Shown: positions 2,655 to 64,000 of the stretch, piece after piece
How the letters are laid out: the number at the start of each line of letters is the position of its first letter
How positions within the stretch are numbered: position 1 is the first letter of the stretch
Origin: Pirellulales bacterium
Lineage (GTDB): Bacteria; Planctomycetota; Planctomycetia; Pirellulales; Lacipirellulaceae
NCBI GenBank assembly: GCA_039831705.1
Contig: JBDOMT010000215.1
Location: 7,898-71,897 of the forward strand
Direction: 5' to 3'
DNA length: 64,000 nucleotides
Made by a program: the position numbers and the translations under genes
The notes under the pieces: model-generated
What the model was told of the DNA's origin: nothing
The model's input: only the letters and a program-made list of their open reading frames with translations
Database searches by the model: none

Positions 2655-4316
2655 TTACTCTTTCCCGTGGTGCTTCACCAGCTCCCAGTATTTCTGGAAA
2701 TCAAAATCTGGACTGTTGTCCGTATCGTGGCACTCGACACACCTCTTTTCGGCCGCCCCCATTTTCTCTCCTGCCGCGGGTTGCAAAGTCAAACGCATAT
2801 TTTTGCGTAATTGCATCTGTTGCTCTTGGGCAACTTCTTTCTCGCCACTTTCCACGGCCACATGAGCTGCCCCGGGACCATGACAATTTTCACAACCGTT
2901 GCCTTGTAGATGATGAGTCGCTCGCAAGCCGAAATATCCCGATCTATACGGAAAGAACCGCTGCGGATCCCAGCCGACCACATGGCAACTGAGACACTCG
3001 GGATCGTAATGCCGAGGAGGCTTCAAATCGACTAAGGTTTGCGTTGCATGTGCATGGGGTGTTCCCTCAAACACCTCAGTCGCTTCCGTGTGGCAATCAG
3101 CACAAACGGCCGAACCAACGAATTGATCACGAGGATGGCCCACTCCGGCTAACTCCAAGCCTTCCAGACCTAACGTTTCTAGCTCATTCTGATATTTAAC
3201 CAATGCCGTTTGCATTTCAGGGGAATCGGTGAACCGATGGTCCAACGGCACCCGTTGATAAAGGATGTTATTTTCTGGAGCGCCATAAAGACCAACCGCA
3301 ATCACATACATGCCTTTGTGCCCCACCTCAATGAGACGCGTATTCGTTCCCTCGATAACCTGAATCCGATCGGGGGGCACCTCCGCGCCACCAGTTGAAG
3401 CCACCAATTGAAATTGCGGATAGAGGCGTGCAAGTTTTGCCGCCTCCTCCAAATCACCATGCACCATCAATACTTGCCAGTCGCAACCTTTGCTGGCCAT
3501 TTTGGGAGCCACTTCATCCAAAGCTGCTACCGGATCGATCCAGGTCACCTCGGAATTATTGGCCATGTCCACCTGGAAGTTCGTCACCAAGACCGAAGTC
3601 ACAGCAATACATTGACCTCCCACTTCAAGCACCCGGTAACGAGAGGATAATCCATACTCAAAACCTAACAGGGCCACATTAGCCGACACGAGTGGATTGT
3701 TTTCCGGATCAAGATTCGCCAGTACAAAAAGCACCGGATCCGTACCGAGCTGTAGATCATGGACTCCCAGCCCAACTCCGGAATAACCAATTTGTAGCAG
3801 CGACTCCATGGCAAAGCGAAATTTGATATTTGCCTGAGGCCCAAACCGGCGAACTTGACCTCCCAGGTCGAGTGCAACCAGAGGCCAACCTTGCTGGCGA
3901 AGATTCTTGATCAACGTATGGCGCCGTTTAAGCCCCCCCAACTGATTTTCCAACCCGGCACAGCCACACGGCTCAAGATAGCCGTTCAACTCACCTGAAA
4001 ACAGGATGGTCGCTTGAGGTTGGGGCCAATTGACAAAGATCGGTCCATTACGTTCTACTGCTTCAGCAGCAGCAAGATTTTCATCTTGATCCCCGTCTGT
4101 TTCTTTTATGCCTGTTTCTTTTACAGACCCCACCTTTCCAGTGAACTGAACTGAATCCGAGATAGTCTCCACACCAACGGACAGAGGGCACTGAATTGCG
4201 AAGTTTATCAAGAATACCAGCAAACCAATCACTCTGGGCAATCGGGCCCACCTACTGTCAATCCCTCTACCAGCCAATTCCTGATGCATGTTTGCCTGCT
4301 TCTCCAATAATATCAC
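2655..4316 (-). CDS. Membrane-anchored tetraheme c-type cytochrome fused to an N-terminal 5'-nucleotidase/metallophosphoesterase-like domain
   Basis: Four CXXCH motifs lie in the C-terminal third (CADCH, CLSCH, CENCH, CVECH). There is an N-terminal hydrophobic helix. The middle region (LNGYLEPCGCAGLENQLGGLKRR..., HGDLEEA) resembles a degenerate UshA-like phosphoesterase fold. Confidence 0.65.
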   Translation of the reverse strand: MILLEKQANMHQELAGRGIDSRWARLPRVIGLLVFLINFAIQCPLSVGVETISDSVQFTGKVGSVKETGIKETDGDQDENLAAAEAVERNGPIFVNWPQPQATILFSGELNGYLEPCGCAGLENQLGGLKRRHTLIKNLRQQGWPLVALDLGGQVRRFGPQANIKFRFAMESLLQIGYSGVGLGVHDLQLGTDPVLFVLANLDPENNPLVSANVALLGFEYGLSSRYRVLEVGGQCIAVTSVLVTNFQVDMANNSEVTWIDPVAALDEVAPKMASKGCDWQVLMVHGDLEEAAKLARLYPQFQLVASTGGAEVPPDRIQVIEGTNTRLIEVGHKGMYVIAVGLYGAPENNILYQRVPLDHRFTDSPEMQTALVKYQNELETLGLEGLELAGVGHPRDQFVGSAVCADCHTEATEVFEGTPHAHATQTLVDLKPPRHYDPECLSCHVVGWDPQRFFPYRSGYFGLRATHHLQGNGCENCHGPGAAHVAVESGEKEVAQEQQMQLRKNMRLTLQPAAGEKMGAAEKRCVECHDTDNSPDFDFQKYWELVKHHGKE

Positions 4317-4828: not shown

Positions 4829-4863
4829 ACTCCAACTCTAGACTCTAAACTCGTTCACTCAAT
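4829..4863. repeat. Degenerate heptanucleotide tandem repeat (actccaa ctctaga ctctaaa ctcgttc actcaat) at the 3' end of the DUF1573 gene
   Basis: The 7-nt periodicity of the CTC/ACTC core was read directly from the sequence. Confidence 0.6.
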
Positions 4864-6043
4864 CATGTACGGCAAACTCTACCTGGAGCTTGAACTGAGC
4901 CGTTTGTGGGTGGGTCGTGGAGAGGATAATTTCCGCCGCCTCGCCAAATCTCTCTCCGCGTCGGATCATTGTCCTTGTACCGGCAGGGATCTCAACAACC
5001 AAAGGGACATGGACTAACTGCTCGCTCATTTTGCGACTTGGCTCCAAGGTTGCTCGTAATTCTTCAGGCTGGATGGTCTCAACCTTCAATTTGGTAGTGA
5101 CGGCATGTTCGCCACGGATGGCTACAATAAGCCGTACTTTCTTGCCTTTCTCGCTAGGAACCTGACCCATACGGAGCATCCCTTTTTTAGCAATCCACCC
5201 CGGTCCGAAAACTGACATGTCTCCAATCACATTAGCCGCCAGGGGAATGTCTAACTTCGCGACATTCTTAAGGTTGGTTTCCACCGTAAGCCAAGTTTGG
5301 ATTGGTCCCAGGGTATGCCCCGCATGCAACGTCGCCACTAACTTGAGTCCAGCCCGTGCATCAGGCAGAGGCAGTTCGCTCTTTGGACATGGCACCAATT
5401 CTACTTCGATCTGACTTGCTAGCTCAGGATCGCTGAGTTGCTGTGATCGGATCTCGATTTCATCTTGCAGAAATGCCATCAAATAGATCTCTGCCTGTCG
5501 AGTCTCACCCGCGCGAACGTTGCCAAAATAAAACTCGTTTGGCATCACCGAGGTCGATTCGACTACGGCACCTTCCACTTGCAACTCAACGCGTGACTGC
5601 GATGGATCGTTGGTAATTAATGTTGCCCCATGGCGAAATGGACCGGGACTGGTCTTGGCGGTCCATTCCAATGTCACTTCTGCTTGTTCGCCAGGTGCAA
5701 CCTCCTCAGCCGATAAGCCCCCCACCGTACACTTGCAAGTAGTAGACCCTACCTTGATATGCAACGAACTGTCACCCGTGTTGCGGACCTGGAAGGCGTG
5801 TGTCAGCGAGGTTCCCTGCTCCATCGAACCAAAATGGTAAACTTTTTCCTCCACTTGAATCTGAGGAGACTTTGCCATAACGCCTCCCGACGTCCCCGTA
5901 TCCGATACTTGTGTATCCGTAATGGACGTTTCCGATGAAGGTAACGCAACCGCCAACGGAAGTATCTGAAATGCCACCAACAGCGCAGCCAACACGACAC
6001 CGCCAAACAGGGCTATCAAAATGATTCGAATCGTTGATTTCAT
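4859..6043 (-). CDS. DUF1573 domain-containing exported protein
   Basis: It has an N-terminal TM/signal segment. The motif HFGSMEQGTSLTHAFQVRNTGDSSLHIKVGSTTCKCTV matches the DUF1573 signature (FxFG...G....H.F...N.G...L.I......C.CT). Confidence 0.7.
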   Translation of the reverse strand: MKSTIRIILIALFGGVVLAALLVAFQILPLAVALPSSETSITDTQVSDTGTSGGVMAKSPQIQVEEKVYHFGSMEQGTSLTHAFQVRNTGDSSLHIKVGSTTCKCTVGGLSAEEVAPGEQAEVTLEWTAKTSPGPFRHGATLITNDPSQSRVELQVEGAVVESTSVMPNEFYFGNVRAGETRQAEIYLMAFLQDEIEIRSQQLSDPELASQIEVELVPCPKSELPLPDARAGLKLVATLHAGHTLGPIQTWLTVETNLKNVAKLDIPLAANVIGDMSVFGPGWIAKKGMLRMGQVPSEKGKKVRLIVAIRGEHAVTTKLKVETIQPEELRATLEPSRKMSEQLVHVPLVVEIPAGTRTMIRRGERFGEAAEIILSTTHPQTAQFKLQVEFAVHD

Positions 6044-31585: not shown

Positions 31586-34500
31586 CTAAGGGCTCTCGCT
31601 CTTCGCTCCTCGCTCCTCGCCCTTCGCCGTACCTTTCACGTAGGCACGCATCCGCTCGATAAATGCTGCCGGAACGCGACTGCGATAGGTGTCACGGAGA
31701 TCACGTTGGTTGTCTTGGGTGTGATTCGCTTCATAACTCATCCGACGGTTTTTGCGCAACCCCAGGCTGCGCAGCGCCGCGTTGAGCTCTGTCTGCGCGG
31801 ATTGAGCCTGGCCGTCGGTACTGGCCGCCAACGACTTGAGATTTTTCCAACGCTGCAAAAACCGCTGGAGTTCTTCCTGAGTCCAACCCACTTTGTCGAG
31901 CATTTTTTGGTCGACCTGCCCTCGTTTGAATTGATCGGTCAGACGATTGAGGACCAGGTTGGTTTGCTGACGCGCGTAGTCGAGATTGGCAGCGTCTCCT
32001 TCGGCTGCTTCCTGTTCAGGACCAGGTGGAATGGTACTTGAACTTTGTCCGTCGCCCCCCCCCTCTTGCGCTGATGGCGATCCTTGAGTTGAAGGGGCCT
32101 GAGATGGACGATCTTGTGCTGGAGAGTCTGGTGGCTGAAAATTTGCGTCTGGCTGGCCGTTCGAGTTGGTGGATTCGCCGGGGGTTGGTTCGTTAGCCGA
32201 AGGAGATTCCGATTGCTCGCGGTTAGCCGATGGCGAATTTTCAGAAGAGTTTTCGGATGAATCAGAAGCCGTGTCCGATGGGTCTGGTTGTTGGCCCGAC
32301 GGCTGATGATTCGATTGCCCGTTTGATGGATCACCCGACTTGTTGTCAGCGCCCGTCTGTTTTTGATTCGACCGGCCCTGGTCCGACCGGCCCTGGTCCG
32401 ACTGGCCCTGGTTCGACGGGTCCTGGCCTGGTTTGGACAAATCGCCCTGAGCACCATCCGCTGCCCCTTGGTTATCTCCAGAATTCCCTTGATCACCTTG
32501 AGAAGATGGCGTATCGCCCGGCCGTGACCCGGTTTGGCCCGCGCCTGGTTGCTCTGATTGTCCACTTCCCTCATCGGCCGCCTGGTGTTGTCCGTCGCTG
32601 CCGGTTCCTTTTGAATCGGCCTGCTGACCGGCACCTTGATCCCCGCCACCCGACCGATCCCCACTCTGCCCGCCCTGAGAATCCGACTCCCGTTGATCTC
32701 GCGCCGTGGCCGAATCCTGCTGGTCATCTGACGGTTTACCCGCCTCGCTGTCGCTCTGTTTGTCACTTGGTTTGCGGGCCTGTTCCGAGCTGGCCCCAGT
32801 TTGCTCATCCGATGAGCTCTCGCCAGCACCAGCTTCGCCCTGTTCGGGGGACTTTTCTCCAGATGCTCCCGTAGATTGAGACTCCCTCTCTTCCGATAAA
32901 CCCGTCGAGGGGTCCTCTGGTTGGCTATCTTCCGTGCTGCCTTCGGCGCCGGCCTCGCCCTGTTCGGGCGATTTTTCTGCGGATTCTCCCGTGGATTGAG
33001 ATTCCCCATCTTGCTCTGAGGTTGGGTCTTGGTTGGCTTCTTCTTCAGCAAGATGCTCAAGAAGTCGCTCGAAGGCCGTACCATCGTCGTCTCCTTCGGA
33101 AGAGACCTTTTCTAGAGTCGATCCCTGTTCGTCTGCTGTCGACTCTGGGGATTGCTGATTGCCAGCCTTCTCACTACTTGTACTATTTTCACTTGCGGAA
33201 CTCCCCTGCCCCGTTCCATCTGAATCCGTTCCATCTGACTGATCGCTTTCGCCTCCCGTGTTCTGGTTCCCATGAGCTCCGTCACCCTTCACACGGTCTT
33301 CACTCCCACCACCCTCACCGTTCTCGCCACTTGCAGTGCCGTCACTCTCACCACCCTCGCCACTCGAACTGCTGCCGCTCTCACCACTCTCACCACCCTC
33401 GCCACTCGAACTGCTGCCGCTCTCACCACCCTCGTCACTCTCGCTACTCGAACTGCTACCGCTCTCACCGCTCTCACCACTCTCGCTACTCGAACTACTG
33501 CCGCTCTCACCACCCTCGCCATCGCTTCCTGTCTCGTCGGCCGCACTACCTTCAGAGGTTTGATCGTCTTCTGGACTCTCCGTTGGATCTTGTGGATTCT
33601 CCGGTCGTCTCGAGTCAGGCGACGCAGAAGATTGCGGACGGGTTACGCGTACTCGCCGTGGCAAGGTGACCGAAACGTTGGCTTCCGGAGCTCGATTGTC
33701 ACGTGCTTCTGCCCAGTAAACCAATACATCGCCCTCATGCAGGTTTAACTGTCCAAGAGTAAACATAGTTTGACCAAGAAAACGTCCCGTGTGATTTTTG
33801 GAGAGTAAAACTCGATTCAGCCGGACCGTTTCAGAAGTGAGATTTTCTTGCGGATTCACTCCAACTTGCTCCAAATGGCCCACAACACGCACCTCAGACA
33901 GGGCGAAATCTGGGTCACTCGCTTCCACTTCGACAGTCATTTGCTCATCCATTGGTCGAGCGACTATTTCATCCGCATTCCCCCCGTCGGATTCAGTCAG
34001 TTGGTCGGATTCAGCCAGTTGGTCGGTCTCAGTCAGTCGAATTTCGGGAGCGTAGTCCGGAGTTACAGCAATCCGATATTTTGGCGGCTGGCGATTGGAC
34101 CGTTTCGTCGTGGTAGTAAAACGCAATACATAACTGACATAACTGGGCGTTCGACGATCGGATCGCAAGGTGAGAGGAAATTGAGCCCACACCTGGTCTC
34201 TGGCATTTTGGTCTCCAATAATCTGCATGGGTAAATCGTGACGACCATCCGCATTAAAATCGACAAAGGCTTCCTGGATGGGATGGTTCGAGAGCCCAAA
34301 CAAAGTAACACGAGTTCCTTCCAGCGCATCCAAGTCGCCGGTCGTATTGACTTCTCGAGATGGGTAGCCCGTGTAGGATGGATAATCGTAGCGTACCCGC
34401 TTCACCACGATGGTGGGTCGGGCAAAAACGTAAACCTGATAAGTGGCCGATCGAGCATCACCCGCTTCGATCCAGTAATCGATGTCTTGCTCCATGCCAT

Positions 34501-37879: not shown

Positions 37880-38536
37880 TTAGCTGATGATCTCTTTACT
37901 GATGAGAAATTGGATGACCTCATCGGCTAATTCATCAGGCAACCGCACCCCCGCGTCGAGCCTCAGTTCTGCCTTGTCAGGCGCTTCGTAAGGCGCATCA
38001 AGTCCGGTAAATCCTTTGATTTTTCCGGCTCGTGCCAACTTATAAAGGCCTTTGGGATCGCGCGATTCACAGACTTCCAAAGGCGCATCGACAAAAACCT
38101 CTAGAAAATCGCCTTCTTCCAAGCTATCGCGAACTGCGTCACGATCAGCCCGGTAGGGGCTGACAAAGGCGGTCAGGGTGACAATGCCCGCATCACACAT
38201 CAGATGAGCCATCGCCCCTACGCGGCGAATGTTTTCCTGGCGATCCTGCGGTGAAAACCCAAGACCAAACCGCTCAGCATAAGGCTGGCCATATTGGTCC
38301 GCCAACAGTTGCGGTGTCGCGTTGAGTCCATGGCGAACGTTATCTCCATCGAGTACGTAGCTTCGCACTTTTCGTTGATGCAACTTTTGGTCGACCAGAT
38401 TAGCGACCGTGCTTTTCCCACAACCACTCAGGCCCGTGAACCACACCACACAACCTCGATGGTTACCGAGTTTTTCACGGTCGGCGCGAAGGATGCTATG
38501 TTCATGCCAAACAACAATTGGGTCTTGATCAGTCAT
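37880..38536 (-). CDS. cysC: Adenylyl-sulfate kinase
   Basis: The P-loop WFTGLSGCGKSTVA, LDGDNVRHGLN and FVSPY are typical of APS kinase. Confidence 0.9.
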   Translation of the reverse strand: MTDQDPIVVWHEHSILRADREKLGNHRGCVVWFTGLSGCGKSTVANLVDQKLHQRKVRSYVLDGDNVRHGLNATPQLLADQYGQPYAERFGLGFSPQDRQENIRRVGAMAHLMCDAGIVTLTAFVSPYRADRDAVRDSLEEGDFLEVFVDAPLEVCESRDPKGLYKLARAGKIKGFTGLDAPYEAPDKAELRLDAGVRLPDELADEVIQFLISKEIIS

Positions 38537-38648: not shown

Positions 38649-38839
38649 AGTCGCGGAGCGACGGCATGTGATAGCCTTGGGTTTTAACCCAAGGTAGCTA
38701 TCCCCCACAACCTGAGTCTCGGAGCAACGGCATGTGGTAGGGTGAATCCCACATGCCGTCGCTCCGCGACTCAAACCCTTTGCGCGAGTCTTCCTGGGGC
38801 TAAAGTCCCCAGGCTATTCTATGCCACCGCTCCGCGGTT
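38649..38839. repeat. Nested palindromic repeat cluster, family C (units built on gagtcgcggagcgacggcatgtg)
   Basis: There are four units. The outer inverted pair is 38649-38702 / 38794-38839, each with a short ccttgggttttaacccaagg-type hairpin. The inner pair, 38714-38745 / 38746-38772, forms a long hairpin. Confidence 0.8.
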
Positions 38840-57900: not shown

Positions 57901-58609
57901 GACCAATCCCGATACGATCGAGCCAACCCTTCTGCAGTGGACCGAGGAAATCGAACAATTAGATCACCAGCGGCATGCCGGCTCCGAAGCAATCGGCAGC
58001 CAGCGAACCGAACTTGAACGAATGGATGGTAGTGCGCGGGCGGCCGAGGCTCAGGAGGAGGCGGAGCAACTGCTGGCTCAACTTCGCACCGACACTCAGC
58101 AGTACGCGCGTTTCCATCTGGCTAGCACTGTCCTCCAACGGGCCATTGAACAGTATCGCCAACAATCCCAGGGACCCGTTTTGGAACGGGCCAGTCAACT
58201 GTTCTGCGAACTGACCCAGGGATCGTTTGACGGTTTGCGAGTCGAATCCAACGAAAAAGGAGATGCGGCCCTGATGGGCATCCGCGCCGGTGGCGGACGA
58301 GTGGTTGGTGTGGAAGGCATGAGCGAAGGAACGTGCGACCAATTGTATCTGGCACTGCGAATTGCCAGCTTGGAAACCTACCTGGCCGAACACGAACCGG
58401 TGCCCCTGATCGTGGACGACATCTTGATTCAATTTGATGACCAACGAGCAATCGCTGCCCTGCAAATACTGGCGCAGTTATCGGAACGAACCCAAGTCAT
58501 TTTTTTCACCCACCACCAACACCTGGTTCAGCTGGCCAGAGAGAACCTGACCGAAGATAGCTTCCACCTGCACAACCTCGATTCGCACAAGCGGCTTGCG
58601 GGAGAATAA
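54959..58609 (+). CDS. sbcC: SbcC/Rad50-family AAA ATPase (YhaN-like), 1216 aa with a long coiled coil
   Basis: An N-terminal Walker A (IVYGPNEAGKSSAL) is followed by ~900 aa of Q/E/L-rich coiled coil. The C-terminus has MSEGTCDQLYLALRIA and Walker B PLIVDDILIQFDD. Confidence 0.8.
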   Translation: MKILRLDLLAFGPFTDQSLVFDSEQKGLAIVYGPNEAGKSSALRGLHQFLYGIPHNSNDNFLHANPNLRIGALLEKSSSEQLSCIRRKGRVNTLRGADDQTIVEQEQLLEWLGRIDEQAFAHRFGIDYDELVRGGRAIVQGEGDLGQILFASGAGLVDLQPVQQQLATAGQTLFKQRGSVQQINVAVTRLAEVRKTIKAAQLPSAQWVERDQALQQAQTRNEQINQQLLERGVQRSELERIRDALPIIARLRHTRSQYEGVASIPLLPDTFAEIRREAVTQHQITQTAKQQASESAASLEKSIGTLEVPQRLLQHASAIGQLKEELGSYRKAAHDRPRLITQRDQIEREASTILKELGREAAGEKNRGEPLEERDDLRVSKPLRLRIQELAQDRNTLVSKHEQTKQAGKALAQEVQRTQAQLDALPSNCEPDELQRVIRFVGQQGDLERQAATLGSELQLAQEQAAIDLNKLSDWSGSLEALERLPIPVPETVSLWIEQQDTLESALTSLIQREEELRLELAELDQQIEQHRLQQDVPTEEDLEHTRQDRDQGWQYVLRAWQQGLWQQGAPSNDTQKPFIQRWNPEGDLASAYEASVAEADRVADRLRREADQVAEKTARMAQREKQSNRLQRLTKQRQQVEEQQQQLQQQWQLAWQETSIRPLAPREMRDWIDRQSALIEVAESIRRQHTALAELEQRIEQLRASCHQALEKMSPKDSKPTNGEPLPTAVAPSRSELTAPSLSELVDRCERRLLQIQSDLDQRSTIQRDLLKLAEKQDQASHSILDAQERRQDWHQQWGTAVRQLGLDQEASPTEAHSVLESIGEWNEKLAEIETLRDRIKGIDQDAKRFRTAVHSVTKKVGTDLSHDLTQLDVAQAVSDLHDQLAHAQRAQSRHEELQRQLKQAQQQQLQAQAKSVELELTLEALCQEAGCQSPEQLPAIEAQSAERKRLQGELREYESRLLELAAGEELEAWIAHAEKTNPDTIEPTLLQWTEEIEQLDHQRHAGSEAIGSQRTELERMDGSARAAEAQEEAEQLLAQLRTDTQQYARFHLASTVLQRAIEQYRQQSQGPVLERASQLFCELTQGSFDGLRVESNEKGDAALMGIRAGGGRVVGVEGMSEGTCDQLYLALRIASLETYLAEHEPVPLIVDDILIQFDDQRAIAALQILAQLSERTQVIFFTHHQHLVQLARENLTEDSFHLHNLDSHKRLAGE

Positions 58610-58613
58610 TTCA

Positions 58614-59243
58614 ATGCAACGCGGAGCGATCATTCTTTGTGGAGGCACCAATCGCCGCATGGGCACCGACAAAGCCTGGTTGCCCTTTGGCCCAGGCGAA
58701 GTGATGCTCCAGCGTGTGGTGCGGTTGGTTACCCAAGTGGTACCGGTCGAACGTGTCGTCTGTGTGGCGGCCGCCAGGCAACAACTGCCCCCATTGGCCG
58801 AGGGCGTGCGGGTGGTCCAAGATCAGCATCCTCAGCGGGGCCCGTTAGAAGGCCTGGCGGCTGGCCTGACGGCGCTGACGAGTGAGGTGAACGCGACCCT
58901 GGTGACCAGTTGCGATGTGCCCTTACTGGTACCGGCACTGATCGAGCGGTTGTTCTCGTTGCTGGGTGACCACCAAATTGTCGTACCCCAAGACGGCCTT
59001 TTCTTCCATCCGTTGGCTGCTGTTTACCGACTAAGTGTGTTGCCGGAGGTCGTTCAACGGCTGGCAAAAGATCAGTTGCGATTGCACGATCTGCTGGGTG
59101 CTTGCCAAACCTACGCAGTGCCAGTGGCAATGCTGCGTGACATCGACCCGACTTTGGCATCGTTGGCCGGTTGTAACGATCAAGAAGAGTACCAGCAGGC
59201 CTTACTGCAAGCCGGTTTTACTCAGCATGGGGACCCATGTTGA
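58614..59243 (+). CDS. mobA: Molybdenum cofactor guanylyltransferase
   Basis: GAIILCGGTNRRMGTDKAWL, ...QRGPLEGL... and TSCDVPLL match MobA motifs. Confidence 0.85.
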   Translation: MQRGAIILCGGTNRRMGTDKAWLPFGPGEVMLQRVVRLVTQVVPVERVVCVAAARQQLPPLAEGVRVVQDQHPQRGPLEGLAAGLTALTSEVNATLVTSCDVPLLVPALIERLFSLLGDHQIVVPQDGLFFHPLAAVYRLSVLPEVVQRLAKDQLRLHDLLGACQTYAVPVAMLRDIDPTLASLAGCNDQEEYQQALLQAGFTQHGDPC

Positions 59244-59281: not shown

Positions 59282-59614
59282 ATGACTAAAAAATTTCTAT
59301 TAAATCCCTCCCGTACCGCCAAACAGGGGGCAAAAATCAACGTTGGCAAGGACGATGAAGAATATAAAAAAATTGTCACAACCTTGACGATTTGTACCAC
59401 CGATATGGAGTTATTGGGAGTGTCCGACGGAGATTCCGTAATTGTGCGTACTGAACAAGGAGAAGCCACCTTTCACTGCGAACAAGGCAATGTGCCCGAG
59501 GGACTACTTTTTGTCCCCTATGGGCCTCCCACTTGCCGCTTGATGAGCGGCAGCACCGATGGCACAGGCATGCCGACTTCGAAAGGCTGGGAGGTGGAGG
59601 TGGAGAAAATTTGA
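59282..59614 (+). CDS. fwdD: Formylmethanofuran dehydrogenase subunit D-like (molybdopterin dinucleotide-binding domain)
   Basis: 110 aa. LGVSDGDSVIVRTEQGEATFHCE..NVPEGLLFVPYGP is the beta-barrel MGD-binding domain pattern of FwdD/FmdD. It is clustered with the B, A and C subunits. Confidence 0.75.
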   Translation: MTKKFLLNPSRTAKQGAKINVGKDDEEYKKIVTTLTICTTDMELLGVSDGDSVIVRTEQGEATFHCEQGNVPEGLLFVPYGPPTCRLMSGSTDGTGMPTSKGWEVEVEKI

Positions 59615-59891
59615 GCCCCGAAGGGGTACGCTGTGAAGGAAAATGGAACTGGAATACTAGCACGAAGCGCCAGCGAGTGAGTCTACGATAGCCGCACTTA
59701 CCCACTCCCTTGCGCGTCGTGCTTGTATTATAAAAAAAGTGCACCAAGACATTAGGAAGGGCGAATATCTCCATACTAGCACGCAGCGCAAGCAAGTGGG
59801 TCACGTACAGTTACCCACTTGCTTGCGCTGCGTGCTTGTATTTTAGAAGTTTCAGCCACTTTAATTGCTTCACTGCGTTACCCTTCGGGGT
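59615..59891. repeat. Nested palindromic element: an outer 23-nt inverted repeat enclosing two tandem ~70-80-nt hairpins
   Basis: The outer arms are gccccgaaggggtacgctgtgaag (59615-59638) / cttcactgcgttacccttcggggt (59868-59891). Hairpin 1 is 59653-59729 (aatactagcacgaagcgccagcgagtgagt / acttacccactcccttgcgcgtcgtgcttgtatt). Hairpin 2 is 59773-59841, with 28/29 pairing. Confidence 0.85.
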
Positions 59892-60231
59892 TGATAAAAT
59901 ACACGGGTGTTAATAACCATAGTATCCAACCGTTGAGCGAATGTTCCTATGACAAAAAAAAACAGCGAACCTGCAGCCAACGATAACCTGAGCTCGGGAA
60001 CCAGCGGTCCCCATTTCAAACTTGAGTCCAACTTGGAATCGGAAAATCACCCGGCCGAATCCTATTCGGCATGGGAAGAAGTGGAATCGGGTCGCTACAT
60101 GCCGCGTCGAGTTCGAGGCAGTTGCACGGGTCGGGCACTCGGATGAACCTTCGTAGTTCCGTCCAGTTCGGACGACCCGCAACCAGAGAATGAGACCCCC
60201 GAAAACTGATCCCTAACCCCGCGGCAACGGC

Positions 60232-61575
60232 ATGAGTGAAACAAGTCTGAATGTGGTGAACAATGCCACCTGCACATTCTGTGGATGCGTCTGCGACGAT
60301 ATTGAATTGCATGCAGACGAAGTCCGCATCCACCAGGCCAAACGGGCCTGTGTCCTTGGAAAAGCCTGGTTCCTGAACCACACCGCCGAGCATAAGTACC
60401 CCGATGCACTGGTCGACGGTAAAGAAGCCAGTTTGGACGACGCCATTGAGACGGCCGCCACCCTATTACACGAAGCCCACATGCCGCTGGTCTACGGCAT
60501 GAGCAACACCACCTGTGAAGCGCAAAAAGAATGTGTGGCACTGGCCGACCTGTTGGGAGGATTGCTCGATAGCCATACCTCGTTGTGACATGGTCCTACC
60601 GAGATCGCCGCTCAGTTGGGTGGCAAAGTTACTTGCACGCTGGGTGAAGTCAAAAACCGGGCCGATTTTATCGTCTATTGGGGTGGCAACCCGGCGGAAT
60701 GCCATCCTCGGCATTTCACCAAATACACATTGATGCAAAAGAGCAAACATTTGCCGCGTGGGCGCAAGGACCGAACCATGGTTCTGGTCGACATACGTCC
60801 CACCAAAAGTGCCAAAGCGGCTGATATCTTTTTGCAAGTCCGCCCCGGCAAAGATTTTGAACTACTGACGATTTTGCGCGCCCTGATTAAGGGACAGAGA
60901 ATTCAGGAGCAGCAGGTTGCCGAAACGGGGCTGACTTTGGACCAATTGACCGATCTGGTTGAACGGATGAAGAAAGCTAAATTCGGCGTGATGTTTTTTG
61001 GCATGGGACTGTCGATGACCCGAGGCAAACATATGAATTCGGCAGCCCTGCTGACATTGGCCGCCGAAATGAACGCCTTCACCAAATTTGTAGCCATGCC
61101 GATGCGCGGCCACGGCAACGTCACTGGAGCCGATGTGATCATGCGTTGGCAAACGGGTTATCCGTTTGGGATTACTTTCAATCGGGGTTACCCGCGTTAC
61201 AATCCGGGCGAATTTTCTACCGTCGATGTCCTGGTTCGCGGTGATACCGATGCGGCTTTCATCATCGGTGCGGACCCGGGTGCCACCATGCCACAACCGG
61301 CCATCGATCATCTGGCGAAAATTCCGACCATCGTCCTCGATCCACACATCACCCACACCAGCCGTTTAGCTCGCGTCCATATCACCACAGCACCCGCTGG
61401 CATCGCAGCTCCGGGCACCGCCTACCGAATGGATGAGATACCCTTGCCCTTGAAACCGGCGCTCAAATCGCCCTATCCGAGTGACGAAGAAGTCGTATCC
61501 CGAATCAAAGATGCGGTTGCCAAGAAGCCCTTTTGGATGCCTGAAAATGGTCAAACCGTATTGACACAGTTATAA
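60232..61575 (+). CDS. fwdB: Formylmethanofuran dehydrogenase subunit B-like, with an in-frame TGA (60586-60588) at the catalytic Cys/Sec position (candidate selenoprotein)
   Basis: Track ORFs 60232-60588 and 60616-61575 share one frame, with no stop in 60589-60615. The N-terminus has the CTFCGCVCDD...AC Fe-S motif. TGA is codon 119 in DSHTSL-TGA-HGPT, matching the CHGP active-site motif of FwdB. The total of 447 codons is the size of FwdB. Confidence 0.8.
60607..60624 (+). promoter_or_regulatory. Candidate SECIS-like hairpin gccgctc-agtt-gggtggc downstream of the in-frame TGA
   Basis: A 7-bp stem (5 Watson-Crick pairs and 2 G-U pairs) carries an AGUU loop and starts 18 nt after the UGA. It was folded by eye only. 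An alternative pairing, ccuaccgag/cucaguugg, also exists. Confidence 0.3.
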
Positions 61576-61583
61576 GGACTGAC

Positions 61584-63218
61584 ATGCTTCGTATTACCGG
61601 TGGCAAAGTTTTTGATCCGGCCAACGGCATCGACGGCGAGGTGCGCGACCTGTTCATTGTCGATGGCCAGATCGCATCTTCGGCCGATGGCGCACGGACC
61701 ATCGATGCTTCGGGGATGGTCGTTTTCCCCGGTGGCGTCGATTTGCACACGCATGTGGCTGGCGGATCGATCAACTTTGCCCGCGCGATGACGCCCGAAG
61801 ATCACCGTCGCACCCAGGCTTTCATCAGTACCCGATCGCGTCGTTCAGGATTGGGCGGGATGGCCCCGACGACTTTTGCCACCGGCTATCTGTACGCCGG
61901 CATGGGTTGGACAACGGTCAACGAAGCGGGGGTTGCCCCTCTGACCGCGCGGCACACGCACGAAGAAATGAACGACATTCCCATTGTCGACAAAACCAGT
62001 TGCCTGTTGATGGCCAACAACGAGATCCTGCTCGAACTGCTGGGACAGGGCGAATACGAACGCGCTAAAAATGTCGTGGCCTGGTACCTGCGGGCGGCCA
62101 AAGTGTATGGCATCAAAGCGGTGAATCCGGGGGGCGTCGCGGCCTGGAAATGGGGTAAAGATGCCAAGCAGATGACCAGCTCCATTGAAGGTCATTCCAA
62201 CCTGACTCCCGGCAAAATCGTGACTCAGTTGGTGCGTATCTGTGATGATCTGGGGCTGCCCCATCCAATGCATCTGCATTGCAACAACCTGGGTGTGCCT
62301 GGCAATATCCGTACGACTCTCGAAACCATGGATCATTTGGAAGGCCATCGGGCCCACATCGCCCATTCCCAATTCCATGCTTACGGTGGCAGCGACTGGG
62401 ATGAAATGTGCTCGGAATCGGTTCAGTTGGCTGAGTACTTTAACACTCACCCCAACTTGACCACCGATGCGGGTGCCGTCTTGTTTGGCGATACGGTAAC
62501 GATCTCCGCCGATGGACCCTGGCAGCACCTGCTGTATCAGTTGACCGGTCGCAAATGGGGCAACCTCGACGTCGAGAACGAAACAGGCTGTGGCATTGTC
62601 CCTTACACCTACAGACCGAGCAACCTGGTCAATGTGGTGCAGTGGGCGGTGGGCCTGGAATTATTGCTATTGATCAAAAATCCGTGGCAGGTATTTATTT
62701 CCACCGATCATCCCAATGGCGGTTGTTTCTGGCGCTATCCCGAAATCATTCAATTATTGATGAGTGCCGATCACCGCCAGGAATGTATGCAAAAAATTTC
62801 CTCCAGGATCAAAAAACGAATCACCCTGCCGCAATTGGATCGCGAGTACACGCTCTACGAAATTGCCACGATCATGTCCGCCGCTCCTGCTCGAGCACTC
62901 GGTCTGCCGCAAAAAGGCAACTTGGGCATCGGTTGTGACGCGGATATCGTGATCTACGAGGAGGAGTCGGACGTGGCACACATGTTTGGTCACCCGAGAT
63001 ACGTCATCAAAAGTGGCCAGATTGTGATCGAAGATGGTGACATTCGCGAAACTCCCAATGGGCACGAATTTATCATCAAGCCCGATTACGACCCGACCAC
63101 CGAAGACTTTATTCGCCCCCTGTTTGAAGATCACTACACGATGTCGTTTGACAATTATCAAGTCGGCATGGACTATCTTGAAAACGCGACGACTCGCGAC
63201 TGCCTGGAATCGCCATGA
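61584..63218 (+). CDS. fwdA: Formylmethanofuran dehydrogenase subunit A (amidohydrolase fold; FwdA/FhcA family)
   Basis: MLRITGGKVFDPANGIDGEV.DLFIVDGQI and the metal-binding FPGGVDLHTHVAGG are present. The length is 544 aa. Confidence 0.9.
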   Translation: MLRITGGKVFDPANGIDGEVRDLFIVDGQIASSADGARTIDASGMVVFPGGVDLHTHVAGGSINFARAMTPEDHRRTQAFISTRSRRSGLGGMAPTTFATGYLYAGMGWTTVNEAGVAPLTARHTHEEMNDIPIVDKTSCLLMANNEILLELLGQGEYERAKNVVAWYLRAAKVYGIKAVNPGGVAAWKWGKDAKQMTSSIEGHSNLTPGKIVTQLVRICDDLGLPHPMHLHCNNLGVPGNIRTTLETMDHLEGHRAHIAHSQFHAYGGSDWDEMCSESVQLAEYFNTHPNLTTDAGAVLFGDTVTISADGPWQHLLYQLTGRKWGNLDVENETGCGIVPYTYRPSNLVNVVQWAVGLELLLLIKNPWQVFISTDHPNGGCFWRYPEIIQLLMSADHRQECMQKISSRIKKRITLPQLDREYTLYEIATIMSAAPARALGLPQKGNLGIGCDADIVIYEEESDVAHMFGHPRYVIKSGQIVIEDGDIRETPNGHEFIIKPDYDPTTEDFIRPLFEDHYTMSFDNYQVGMDYLENATTRDCLESP

Positions 63219-64000
63219 GCATGGTTACTCTCAAACTCAAACGACAGCCTCAGGTTCCATTGGAAGCGGAAGTGTTGTCCCCCGATGTTCTCTCAGAGCT
63301 TTCCAACGAACAGATCCGAGCACAAATCGTTTACCACGGCAAAAGGCAATGCGCCTTGGGTGATTTTTTTGAAGTCGAGGGTGAGCGCAGTGAGCACCTT
63401 GAGATCCATGGAGATCTGCATCGAGTCCGATGGCTTGGCCGCGGCATGTCGCGCGGCCGTCTGATTGTCCACGGCTCCGTTGGCATGCACTTGGGTGCAT
63501 ACATGGCGGGCGGTGAAATCGAAGTGCATGGCGACGCCAGTGATTGGATAGGCGCCGAGATGAAAAACGGCCTGATTCGCGTCCATGGAAACGCCGGCGG
63601 CCAGGTAGGGGCCGCTTATCGGGGCAGCCTGTCCGGCATGCGCAATGGAACTATTTTGATCGGTGGCACGGCCGGCCTGGAAGTTGGGATGCGAATGCGC
63701 CGCGGAACCATTGTCATTGCCGGCGCAGCCAAAGATTTTACCGGATTGCAAATGAAGGGCGGCACCATCGTCTTGCTCAGTGGCGCCGAGCTGCGAACTG
63801 GAGCCTGGATGGTCCGAGGAACCATTCTCACACTCAAGTCAGTGGAACTGATGCCAACGTTCTCCTACGACTGCCGCTTCAATCCAGGCTTTGTAGGATT
63901 GGTGGCAAGTTATCTCAAACCCCTGGGCATCGACCTGCCACATGCGGCCGATCAAGGCGCCTACGATCTCTACTCGGGAGACTCTTCAGTACCCGGCAAA
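63215..64000 (+). CDS. fwdC: Formylmethanofuran dehydrogenase subunit C (partial; runs off the 3' end of the window)
   Basis: My own translation from ATG 63215 (an ATGA overlap with the fwdA stop) gives MSMVTLKLKRQP...IHGDLHRV..LGRGMSRGRLIVHGSVGMHLGAYMAGGEIEVHGDASDWIGAEMKNGLIRVHGNAG. This is the glycine-rich beta-helix repeat of FwdC/GltB-C-like proteins. The frame is open to nt 64000. Confidence 0.85.
   Translation, partial: MSMVTLKLKRQPQVPLEAEVLSPDVLSELSNEQIRAQIVYHGKRQCALGDFFEVEGERSEHLEIHGDLHRVRWLGRGMSRGRLIVHGSVGMHLGAYMAGGEIEVHGDASDWIGAEMKNGLIRVHGNAGGQVGAAYRGSLSGMRNGTILIGGTAGLEVGMRMRRGTIVIAGAAKDFTGLQMKGGTIVLLSGAELRTGAWMVRGTILTLKSVELMPTFSYDCRFNPGFVGLVASYLKPLGIDLPHAADQGAYDLYSGDSSVPGK

Follow-up and report, generated by a model that had tools for sequence, protein, structure and literature searches.

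In-frame TGA at the metal-ligand codon of a planctomycete formylmethanofuran dehydrogenase gene (fwdB), and a conserved small upstream reading frame with a second TGA

The catalytic subunit of formylmethanofuran dehydrogenase, known as FwdB or FmdB, has already been linked to selenocysteine (Sec) in bacteria. The fmdB gene of Rhodopirellula sp. P2 was reported as a selenoprotein gene (Kim et al. 2016, PLoS One; PMC4807772), and a 2026 review includes FwdB as a selenoprotein family of both bacteria and archaea (PMC13188914, Table 1). The present analysis deals with the fwdB gene found in a stretch of 64,000 nucleotides (nt) from a Pirellulales bacterium (assembly GCA_039831705.1, contig JBDOMT010000215.1, positions 7,898 to 71,897), referred to here as the window, in which the reading frame is interrupted by an in-frame TGA. 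The UGA of codon 119 is very probably read as Sec, and the gene as a whole then yields one catalytic subunit of 447 residues, belonging to a formylmethanofuran dehydrogenase that uses a tungsten- or molybdenum-pterin. The same interpretation had been put forward in an earlier note on this DNA, which took Sec-containing FwdB to be known only from methanogens. The publication on fmdB of strain P2 bears the interpretation out and also means that it is not new, and methanogens can no longer be regarded as the only known source of Sec-FwdB (PMC4807772; PMC13188914, Table 1). Its presence in planctomycetes is thus already known, and what is added here is the breadth of the trait (79/80 related loci), the comparative evidence for a hairpin in the coding region, and the finding that fwdB is still divided in public gene calls.

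The locus of Rhodopirellula sp. P2 resembles that of the window in its fmdD-fmdB-fmdA-fmdC operon, in the annotation of fmdB as two pieces, and in the alignment of the in-frame UGA with the Sec or Cys of the homologs, although the organism is a different one and the small upstream open reading frame (ORF) described below is not listed in that study (PMC4807772). The Sec-containing FwdB and FwuB of the methanogens (Methanopyrus kandleri and the Methanococcales) share with the window protein the TIGR03129 family, the U/C-H-G-P motif, the iron-sulfur motif, and the accompanying subunits A, C, and D. In the selenoprotein genes of archaea, the SECIS, or selenocysteine insertion sequence, occurs in the 3' untranslated region, whereas the candidate element of the window is a hairpin of the bacterial type, located within the coding sequence.

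Two other bacterial systems provide a useful comparison. The FhcB of Methylorubrum extorquens (6s6y_B) is, like the FwdB described here, a bacterial homolog involved in methanopterin-linked C1 oxidation, but it is a distant one (E 4.6e-12), and residue 60 of the window protein is the first that it matches. FhcB lacks the iron-sulfur domain, the ligand Cys, and the pterin, whereas the window protein has the iron-sulfur motif and the U-H-G-P motif, with an adjoining fwdD gene, and does not belong with FhcB on these features. By its composition, the gene set is that of a redox-active pterin enzyme, unlike the non-redox Fhc hydrolase. In the case of the fdhF gene of Escherichia coli, the likeness lies in the recoding itself, with an in-frame UGA at the molybdenum-ligand column of a related pterin enzyme, a hairpin directly 3' of this codon, and a loop containing G and U. 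In comparison with the fdhF SECIS, the window stem is shorter, has no bulged U, and presents its loop approximately 7 nt farther from the UGA.

The translation of 60232-61575 gives 448 codons, and the sole internal stop is codon 119, which stands between DSHTSL and HGPTEIA. When this codon is read as Sec, the surrounding peptide is SL-U-HGPTEIAAQLGGK. A mechanical ORF list divides the frame into two parts (60232-60588 and 60616-61575), and retranslation confirmed the statement of the earlier note that both of these listed ORFs belong to one frame, with the TGA at 60586-60588 as its only interruption. With the stop replaced by Cys in the query for profile scoring, FwdB reached 506.2 bits against NCBIfam TIGR03129 (cut-off 327.8), in a match that extends over residues 11-428 and profile positions 1-420 of 421, and it also matched the solved chains 9sfi_Q (E 6e-114) and 5t5i_B (E 1.4e-108).

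The TGA was also said in the earlier note to fall on the active-site Cys/Sec column, and the structure alignment places it there, on the tungsten-ligating Cys118 of the FwdB of Methanothermobacter wolfeii (5t5i_B, ASVCHGPS). The same column is occupied by a non-standard residue X in 9sfi_Q (SVxHGPS), and, as in 5t5i_B, by Cys in 8rja_B, in the database proteins P0003 and P0112, and in one related locus in which the codon is TGC (L079). The HGP that follows the TGA aligns with the solved FwdB, including the catalytic His, and the Arg of the PMRGH motif aligns with that of IPMRGH in 5t5i_B (residue 288, counted along the alignment). The N-terminal [4Fe-4S] motif, C14-x2-C17-x3-C21...C40, corresponds, in turn, to CPFCGTLCDD...NACRIG of 5t5i_B. 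Nine of the 27 other recognised genes of the window end in TGA, which is therefore an ordinary stop elsewhere in this DNA, so that the genetic code is the standard one and the recoding has to be a local event.

The conservation of the codon was assessed in a comparison set of 80 related loci from species-representative genomes, with FwdB identities of 75-87%. The labels of these loci include Pirellulaceae, Rubripirellula, Rhodopirellula, Stieleria marina K23_9, Gemmataceae, and other planctomycete groups, together with a few non-planctomycetes (Acidobacteriota, for example). The alignments of 81 sequences comprise the window and the 80 loci, and the counts at synonymous sites are based on 76 distinct sequences. 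The TGA is found in the same column in 79 of the 80 loci, and the remaining locus (L079, Gemmataceae) has TGC. This distribution shows that the stop codon is not on this column by chance, which the earlier note had considered unlikely, and answers the call of that note for a check of the codon in orthologs.

The peptide around the column, DSHTSL-U-HGPTEIAAQLGGKV, is invariant in the 80 related loci, and the changes directly 3' of the TGA are restricted to third codon positions and are synonymous. Over the nine codons that separate the TGA from the TTG at 60616 (HGPTEIAAQ), the protein is invariant and the synonymous sites vary, and this third-position-only variation indicates that the codons located before the next possible start are translated in frame. 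Across 76 loci, the mean identity to the window is 75.7% for the N-terminal 118 residues and 84.0% for the C-terminal part. Approximately 100 of the closest database proteins (84-96% identical) are fragments of 315-325 residues that start just past the TGA, which indicates that gene callers split fwdB in many other assemblies. The best full-length orthologs in the database are 85-87% identical, and the values of up to 96% refer to the post-TGA fragments only. This split annotation leads pathway reconstructions and protein databases to misdescribe the enzyme.

The locus with the Cys codon (L079; 6343-6407) still has the entire hairpin sequence 3' of its TGC, which suggests, from the sequence, a recent change from Sec to Cys. 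Three full-length FwdB paralogs of the planctomycete type (P0014, P0001, and P0008; 65-67% identical) have Thr or Arg in place of the metal ligand, or a deletion in that column, and the PMRGH motif is degraded in two of them. One of these (P0014) is alone in its genome (locus L082), with neither fwdA nor fwdC. These paralogs are probably non-redox, FhcB-like forms, with the locus context being drawn from P0014 only. A further NCBI protein (P0002; 417 residues, 72% identical) lacks exactly 28 residues around the TGA (…DSHTSL/YFIVYWGG…), and looks as if the stop codon had been spliced out of its sequence by the gene model.

The second line of evidence is the hairpin GCCGCUC-AGUU-GGGUGGC, which begins 18 nt past the TGA, as the earlier note had pointed out, and which forms part of the minimum-energy fold of the single sequence. 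When RNAalifold was applied to the 81 orthologous sequences, it returned one helix only, at columns 22-39, which are positions 60607-60624, so the hairpin of 7 bp is present as a consensus helix, with constrained synonymous sites. The cells of the stem are paired in 98.3% of cases, whereas sliding the 3' partners by 1-3 columns lowers this figure to 28-56%. The four four-fold sites of the stem, which pair with a fixed G, have a pyrimidine in 295 of 304 cases (97%), and the eleven flanking four-fold sites in 490 of 836 (59%). The two codons of the loop, CAG and TTG, are identical in all 76 distinct sequences, and the nearby Leu and two-fold sites vary.

The loop presents its G and U 25-28 nt past the UGA, in agreement with the bacterial type of SECIS, in which the apical loop contains G and U, as it does in E. 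coli fdhF. The range of UGA spacings adopted by bSECISearch is reportedly 16-37 nt. The hairpin is also reflected in the protein, given that the Sec-type enzymes have AAQLGG at this site, the archaeal Cys-type enzyme ALQDVG, 9sfi_Q, with its X at the ligand column, AVQDVG, and the bacterial Cys-type enzymes AFQGVG or ALQAVG. By this comparison of peptides, the element dictates the AAQLGG of the Sec-type FwdB. A hairpin within the coding region represents a signature that can be used for the re-annotation of fwdB, and illustrates how a SECIS may constrain the sequence of the enzyme itself.

Bacterial Sec insertion is an established process, and solved Fwd complexes are available, which together provide the basis for a mechanism. 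A complex of SelB and Sec-tRNA(Sec) would bind the fwdB hairpin and decode UGA119, in competition with release factor 2, and the selenolate would then ligate the tungsten or molybdenum of the bis-guanine-dinucleotide pterin cofactor. The redox module, in which the iron-sulfur cluster relays electrons and FwdD caps the pterin, would consist of FwdB and FwdD, while FwdA would act on the amide bond of formyl-methanofuran, with FwdC as a scaffold. Methanopterin-linked formaldehyde oxidation is known in the planctomycetes, and the planctomycete enzyme most likely closes this pathway by running in the oxidative direction, with formyl-methanofuran as its substrate and CO2 as its product.

A number of points weigh against this interpretation. 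All the changes in the fwdB stem are one-sided (G-C to G-U), with no two-sided compensation, because each variable pair has one partner at a first or second codon position, which the protein code keeps constant. The contrast in pyrimidines between the stem and its flanks (odds ratio 23, Fisher p ~1e-44) is uncorrected for the relatedness of the sequences, and the fold of the 65-nt stretch has no advantage over that of shuffled sequence (z = -0.26). The searches for sel genes and tRNAs, which cover the 64-kb window, recovered no selA, selB, selD, or tRNA-Sec, and no tRNA gene at all. In the literature examined, there is no report of either selenium incorporation or enzyme activity for a bacterial FwdB, and bSECISearch called no SECIS in the ortholog of Rhodopirellula sp. 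P2 (PMC4807772, S9 Table).

The lack of Sec machinery in the window and of two-sided covariation in the fwdB hairpin would also fit a UGA that is read through by a near-cognate Trp or Cys tRNA, or by a suppressor, with the hairpin acting only as a stimulator of read-through. This is very improbable, as the sole ortholog with a sense codon has Cys, the loop has the GU of bacterial SECIS elements, as in fdhF, and the column holds the metal-ligating Cys in the homologs and Sec in the archaeal isoenzymes (PMC13188914, Table 1). In addition, the genes for the machinery are found in related planctomycetes, with selA, selB, selC, and selD all being present in the genome of Rhodopirellula sp. P2 (PMC4807772, S8 Table).

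Slightly less probable still is a split gene, in which the TGA is a true stop, and an iron-sulfur fragment of 118 residues assembles with a fragment of 319 residues that is restarted at TTG 60616. The TTG at 60616-60618 is invariant in 76 of 76 distinct sequences, and the 319-residue product is routine in the output of gene callers, but the TTG lies in the loop and the closing pair of the hairpin, which accounts for its invariance. The HGPTEIAAQ codons that precede it are translated in frame, including that of the catalytic His which follows the ligand, and the ortholog with TGC (L079) is a continuous gene. A pseudogene, or an error of sequencing or assembly at the TGA, is what an enzyme gene with a stop codon partway through suggests on its face, but it can be set aside almost entirely, given that the codon recurs in 79 of the 80 independent assemblies, which span many genera, that there are no other lesions, that both halves of the gene are under purifying selection, and that the relatives differ in record names and sequences, which excludes an artefact of a single source.

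With UGA119 read as Sec, the selenium- and pterin-dependent formylmethanofuran dehydrogenase would be the standard form of this enzyme in the planctomycetes sampled, in contrast with the non-redox Fhc hydrolase of the proteobacterial methylotrophs.

The gap of 618 nt between fwdD and fwdB includes a block that is conserved in the relatives, and with which a small ORF (59949-60146), referred to here as the upstream ORF (uORF), comes to its end. It is present in 78 of the 81 sequences (the window and 77 of the 80 loci), two of which were recognised by eye. The first stop of the uORF is always TGA, and the next in-frame stop is variously TAA, TAG, or TGA. The peptide has an (S/G)PHF motif and a core of A-W-E-E-V-x-x-G-R-F-M-P-R-R-V-R-G-S-C-x-G-R-A-L-G, which is followed by the TGA and, beyond it, by x-F-x-[VI]-P. 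The variation is 3-periodic on both sides of the TGA, and past it the Phe is encoded by either TTT or TTC, the Pro by all four of its codons, and the indels are of 3 nt.

This second TGA is also followed by a SECIS-like hairpin. The consensus helix has 6 bp and a loop of (A/G)GUUC, its cells are paired in 99.3% of cases, and there is two-sided compensation in five of the six pairs, a level of covariation that was reached by none of 500 shuffles. A covariance model (R1) gives a single match in each of 77 of the 80 loci, always just 5' of fwdB, including two loci that were left out of the building of the model. The match in the window is at 60144-60188 (E 4.7e-10), and the second-best match (32955-32971), which has no TGA upstream, was dismissed as a product of chance. 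A single model for both hairpins was also rejected, since R1 misses that of fwdB, and the two have no more in common than their general architecture and the RGUU motif of the loop.

The uORF family comprises more than 3000 public protein clusters, all of them named hypothetical. There was no match to Pfam or NCBIfam, even at E <= 10, no relative in the PDB, and no match to a curated selenoprotein family. No Cys homolog was found among the 120 best-scoring of the more than 3000 clusters. Database variants with Trp or Gly were considered as homologs with a sense codon, and were discarded, as both of the cases that can be read in the DNA (Trp) have TGA. A predicted structure includes a short beta-hairpin, with the rest at low confidence (predicted local distance difference test, pLDDT, 63.6) and mostly disordered. 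The possibility that the uORF is the missing C-terminal tail of FwdD was unsupported by the alignment to the solved FwdD chains.

In two of the loci (L083, 63-281, and L084, 434-1151), the public calls give Trp where the DNA has TGA. Both are short metagenome contigs that contain the uORF as well as fwdB, and in L084 the fwdB call crosses its TGA. The presence of two in-frame TGAs apparently made the gene callers adopt a genetic code other than the standard one.

The extended uORF ends at a median distance of 54 nt before the start of fwdB. The range is -4 to approximately 300 nt, apart from a single outlier at 1366 nt, and the two frames overlap (ATGA) in seven loci. Given this variable distance, a simple translational coupling cannot be universal. 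The two loci that have no fwdD upstream (L060, with TGA, and L079, with TGC) also lack the uORF.

The conservation across the TGA and the covarying hairpin make it somewhat more probable than not that the UGA of the uORF is decoded as Sec at all. It is a good deal more doubtful, albeit conceivable, that the uORF is a selenium checkpoint or leader, rather than an enzyme, which gates the expression of fwdBAC. The UGA and the SECIS-like hairpin would, in this case, make the ribosomes report on the availability of Sec-tRNA, and only those that read through would reach the region 5' of fwdB, thereby licensing the selenium-dependent fwdBAC. A leader is favored by the restriction of the conserved part to the approximately 25 residues before the UGA, by the lack of a Cys homolog among the 120 best-scoring clusters, by the mostly disordered predicted structure, and by the ending of the extended uORF at or near the start of fwdB in many genomes. 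In a more moderate version, the product of the uORF may be a small selenoprotein of a new kind, acting together with the enzyme.

The 5' region of the E. coli selAB genes has a SECIS-like element, and TnaC is a leader peptide that senses a stop codon. The likeness of the uORF to these systems is functional only, consisting of a short conserved peptide that ends at a UGA next to a structured RNA, and of the placement just 5' of a gene that depends on the resource being sensed, with no sequence similarity being found. A search of the literature found no precedent for a Sec-dependent leader, and this uORF, with a TGA and a hairpin of its own, appears to have gone unreported so far. If its UGA is truly decoded, the uORF would represent a new selenoprotein family or, possibly, a selenoprotein operon gated by a Sec-dependent leader.

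The coordinates of the features of the locus are presented in the table below. The FwdD of the window aligns to the FwdD chains 2ki8_A, 9sfi_S, and 5t5i_D, and its gene is located upstream of fwdB in 76 of the 80 loci. In the cultured Stieleria marina K23_9 (NZ_CP036526.1, locus L061), the operon has the order fwdD, small ORF, fwdB, fwdA, fwdC, and the fwdC ortholog of this species matches TIGR03122 (6e-79). No gene for a polyferredoxin subunit (FwdF, FwdG) or a ferredoxin-type subunit adjoins the fwd operon. The mobA-like gene is found beside the operon in only one of the 80 related loci and, by this comparison, the adjacency of mobA and fwdD is lineage-specific. For the binding of a tungsten or molybdenum bis-pterin guanine dinucleotide by FwdB, the neighbouring mobA is circumstantial evidence only.

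Table. Features of the fwd locus, with positions counted from the first letter of the window.
Feature	Positions	Strand	Basis
mobA-like molybdenum cofactor guanylyltransferase (guanine dinucleotide form of the pterin cofactor)	58596..59243	+	NCBIfam MobA 1e-24 to 6e-28; Pfam NTP_transf_3 7e-32
fwdD, small pterin-capping subunit	59282..59614	+	NCBIfam FwdD 1.1e-21; Pfam Molydop_binding 1.3e-8
Near-perfect palindrome of 69 nt in the fwdD-uORF spacer, arms of 32 nt (94% complementary), loop of 5 nt	59773..59841		
uORF, 65 codons, TGA at 60144-60146, extension of 20 codons to the stop at 60207-60209	59949..60209	+	conserved ORF
SECIS-like hairpin CGUCC-AGUUC-GGACG, 13 nt past the uORF TGA	60160..60174	+	RNAalifold covariation
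fwdB, catalytic pterin subunit, 447 residues when read through the TGA	60232..61575	+	TIGR03129 and matches to solved chains
TGA, codon 119, probable Sec codon at the tungsten/molybdenum-ligand position	60586..60588	+	structure alignment; TGA in 79/80 loci
Candidate bacterial-type SECIS hairpin, 7 bp, loop AGUU	60607..60624	+	consensus fold and synonymous-site constraint
fwdA, amidohydrolase subunit	61584..63218	+	TIGR03121 684 bits (cut-off 392.75)
fwdC, 5' part, continuing beyond the end of the window	63215..64000	+	frame open from ATG 63215; FwdC-type G-rich repeats

The palindrome of the spacer occurs once in the window, where only its own two arms match, and it was not found in any of the related loci, so it is probably outside the conserved system. 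The comparison of the fwdD-fwdB region with Rfam recovered no SECIS or riboswitch family, and the weak matches to microRNA models in this region were discounted as artefacts of the palindrome.

Other signals of selenium use were also sought. No tRNA-Sec was found near fwdB in the 60 related loci scanned. The other frames of the window that are interrupted by a single TGA are spurious overlaps only, and a scan of the window for a TGA followed by a hairpin with a GU loop returned the fwdB site and one out-of-frame match, a result within the range of shuffled sequence. Two adjacent genes on the reverse strand match families that are labelled "(seleno)protein" by NCBI, in both cases below the cut-off. 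One is a UshA-like gene (2655-4316; NF041198), which has PCGC where the family name has PCGU, and the other is an OS_HP2 gene (4859-6043; NF041425), which has no in-frame TGA. Both are Cys forms, and were thus set aside as uninformative with regard to the decoding of Sec. Elsewhere in the window, two Acido-Lenti-1 RNA motifs (RF01687), at 38649-38694 on the reverse strand and 38793-38839 on the forward strand, score 51 and 40 bits, above the gathering score, and form a divergent pair between an adenylyl-sulfate kinase gene (37880-38536) and the next ORF.

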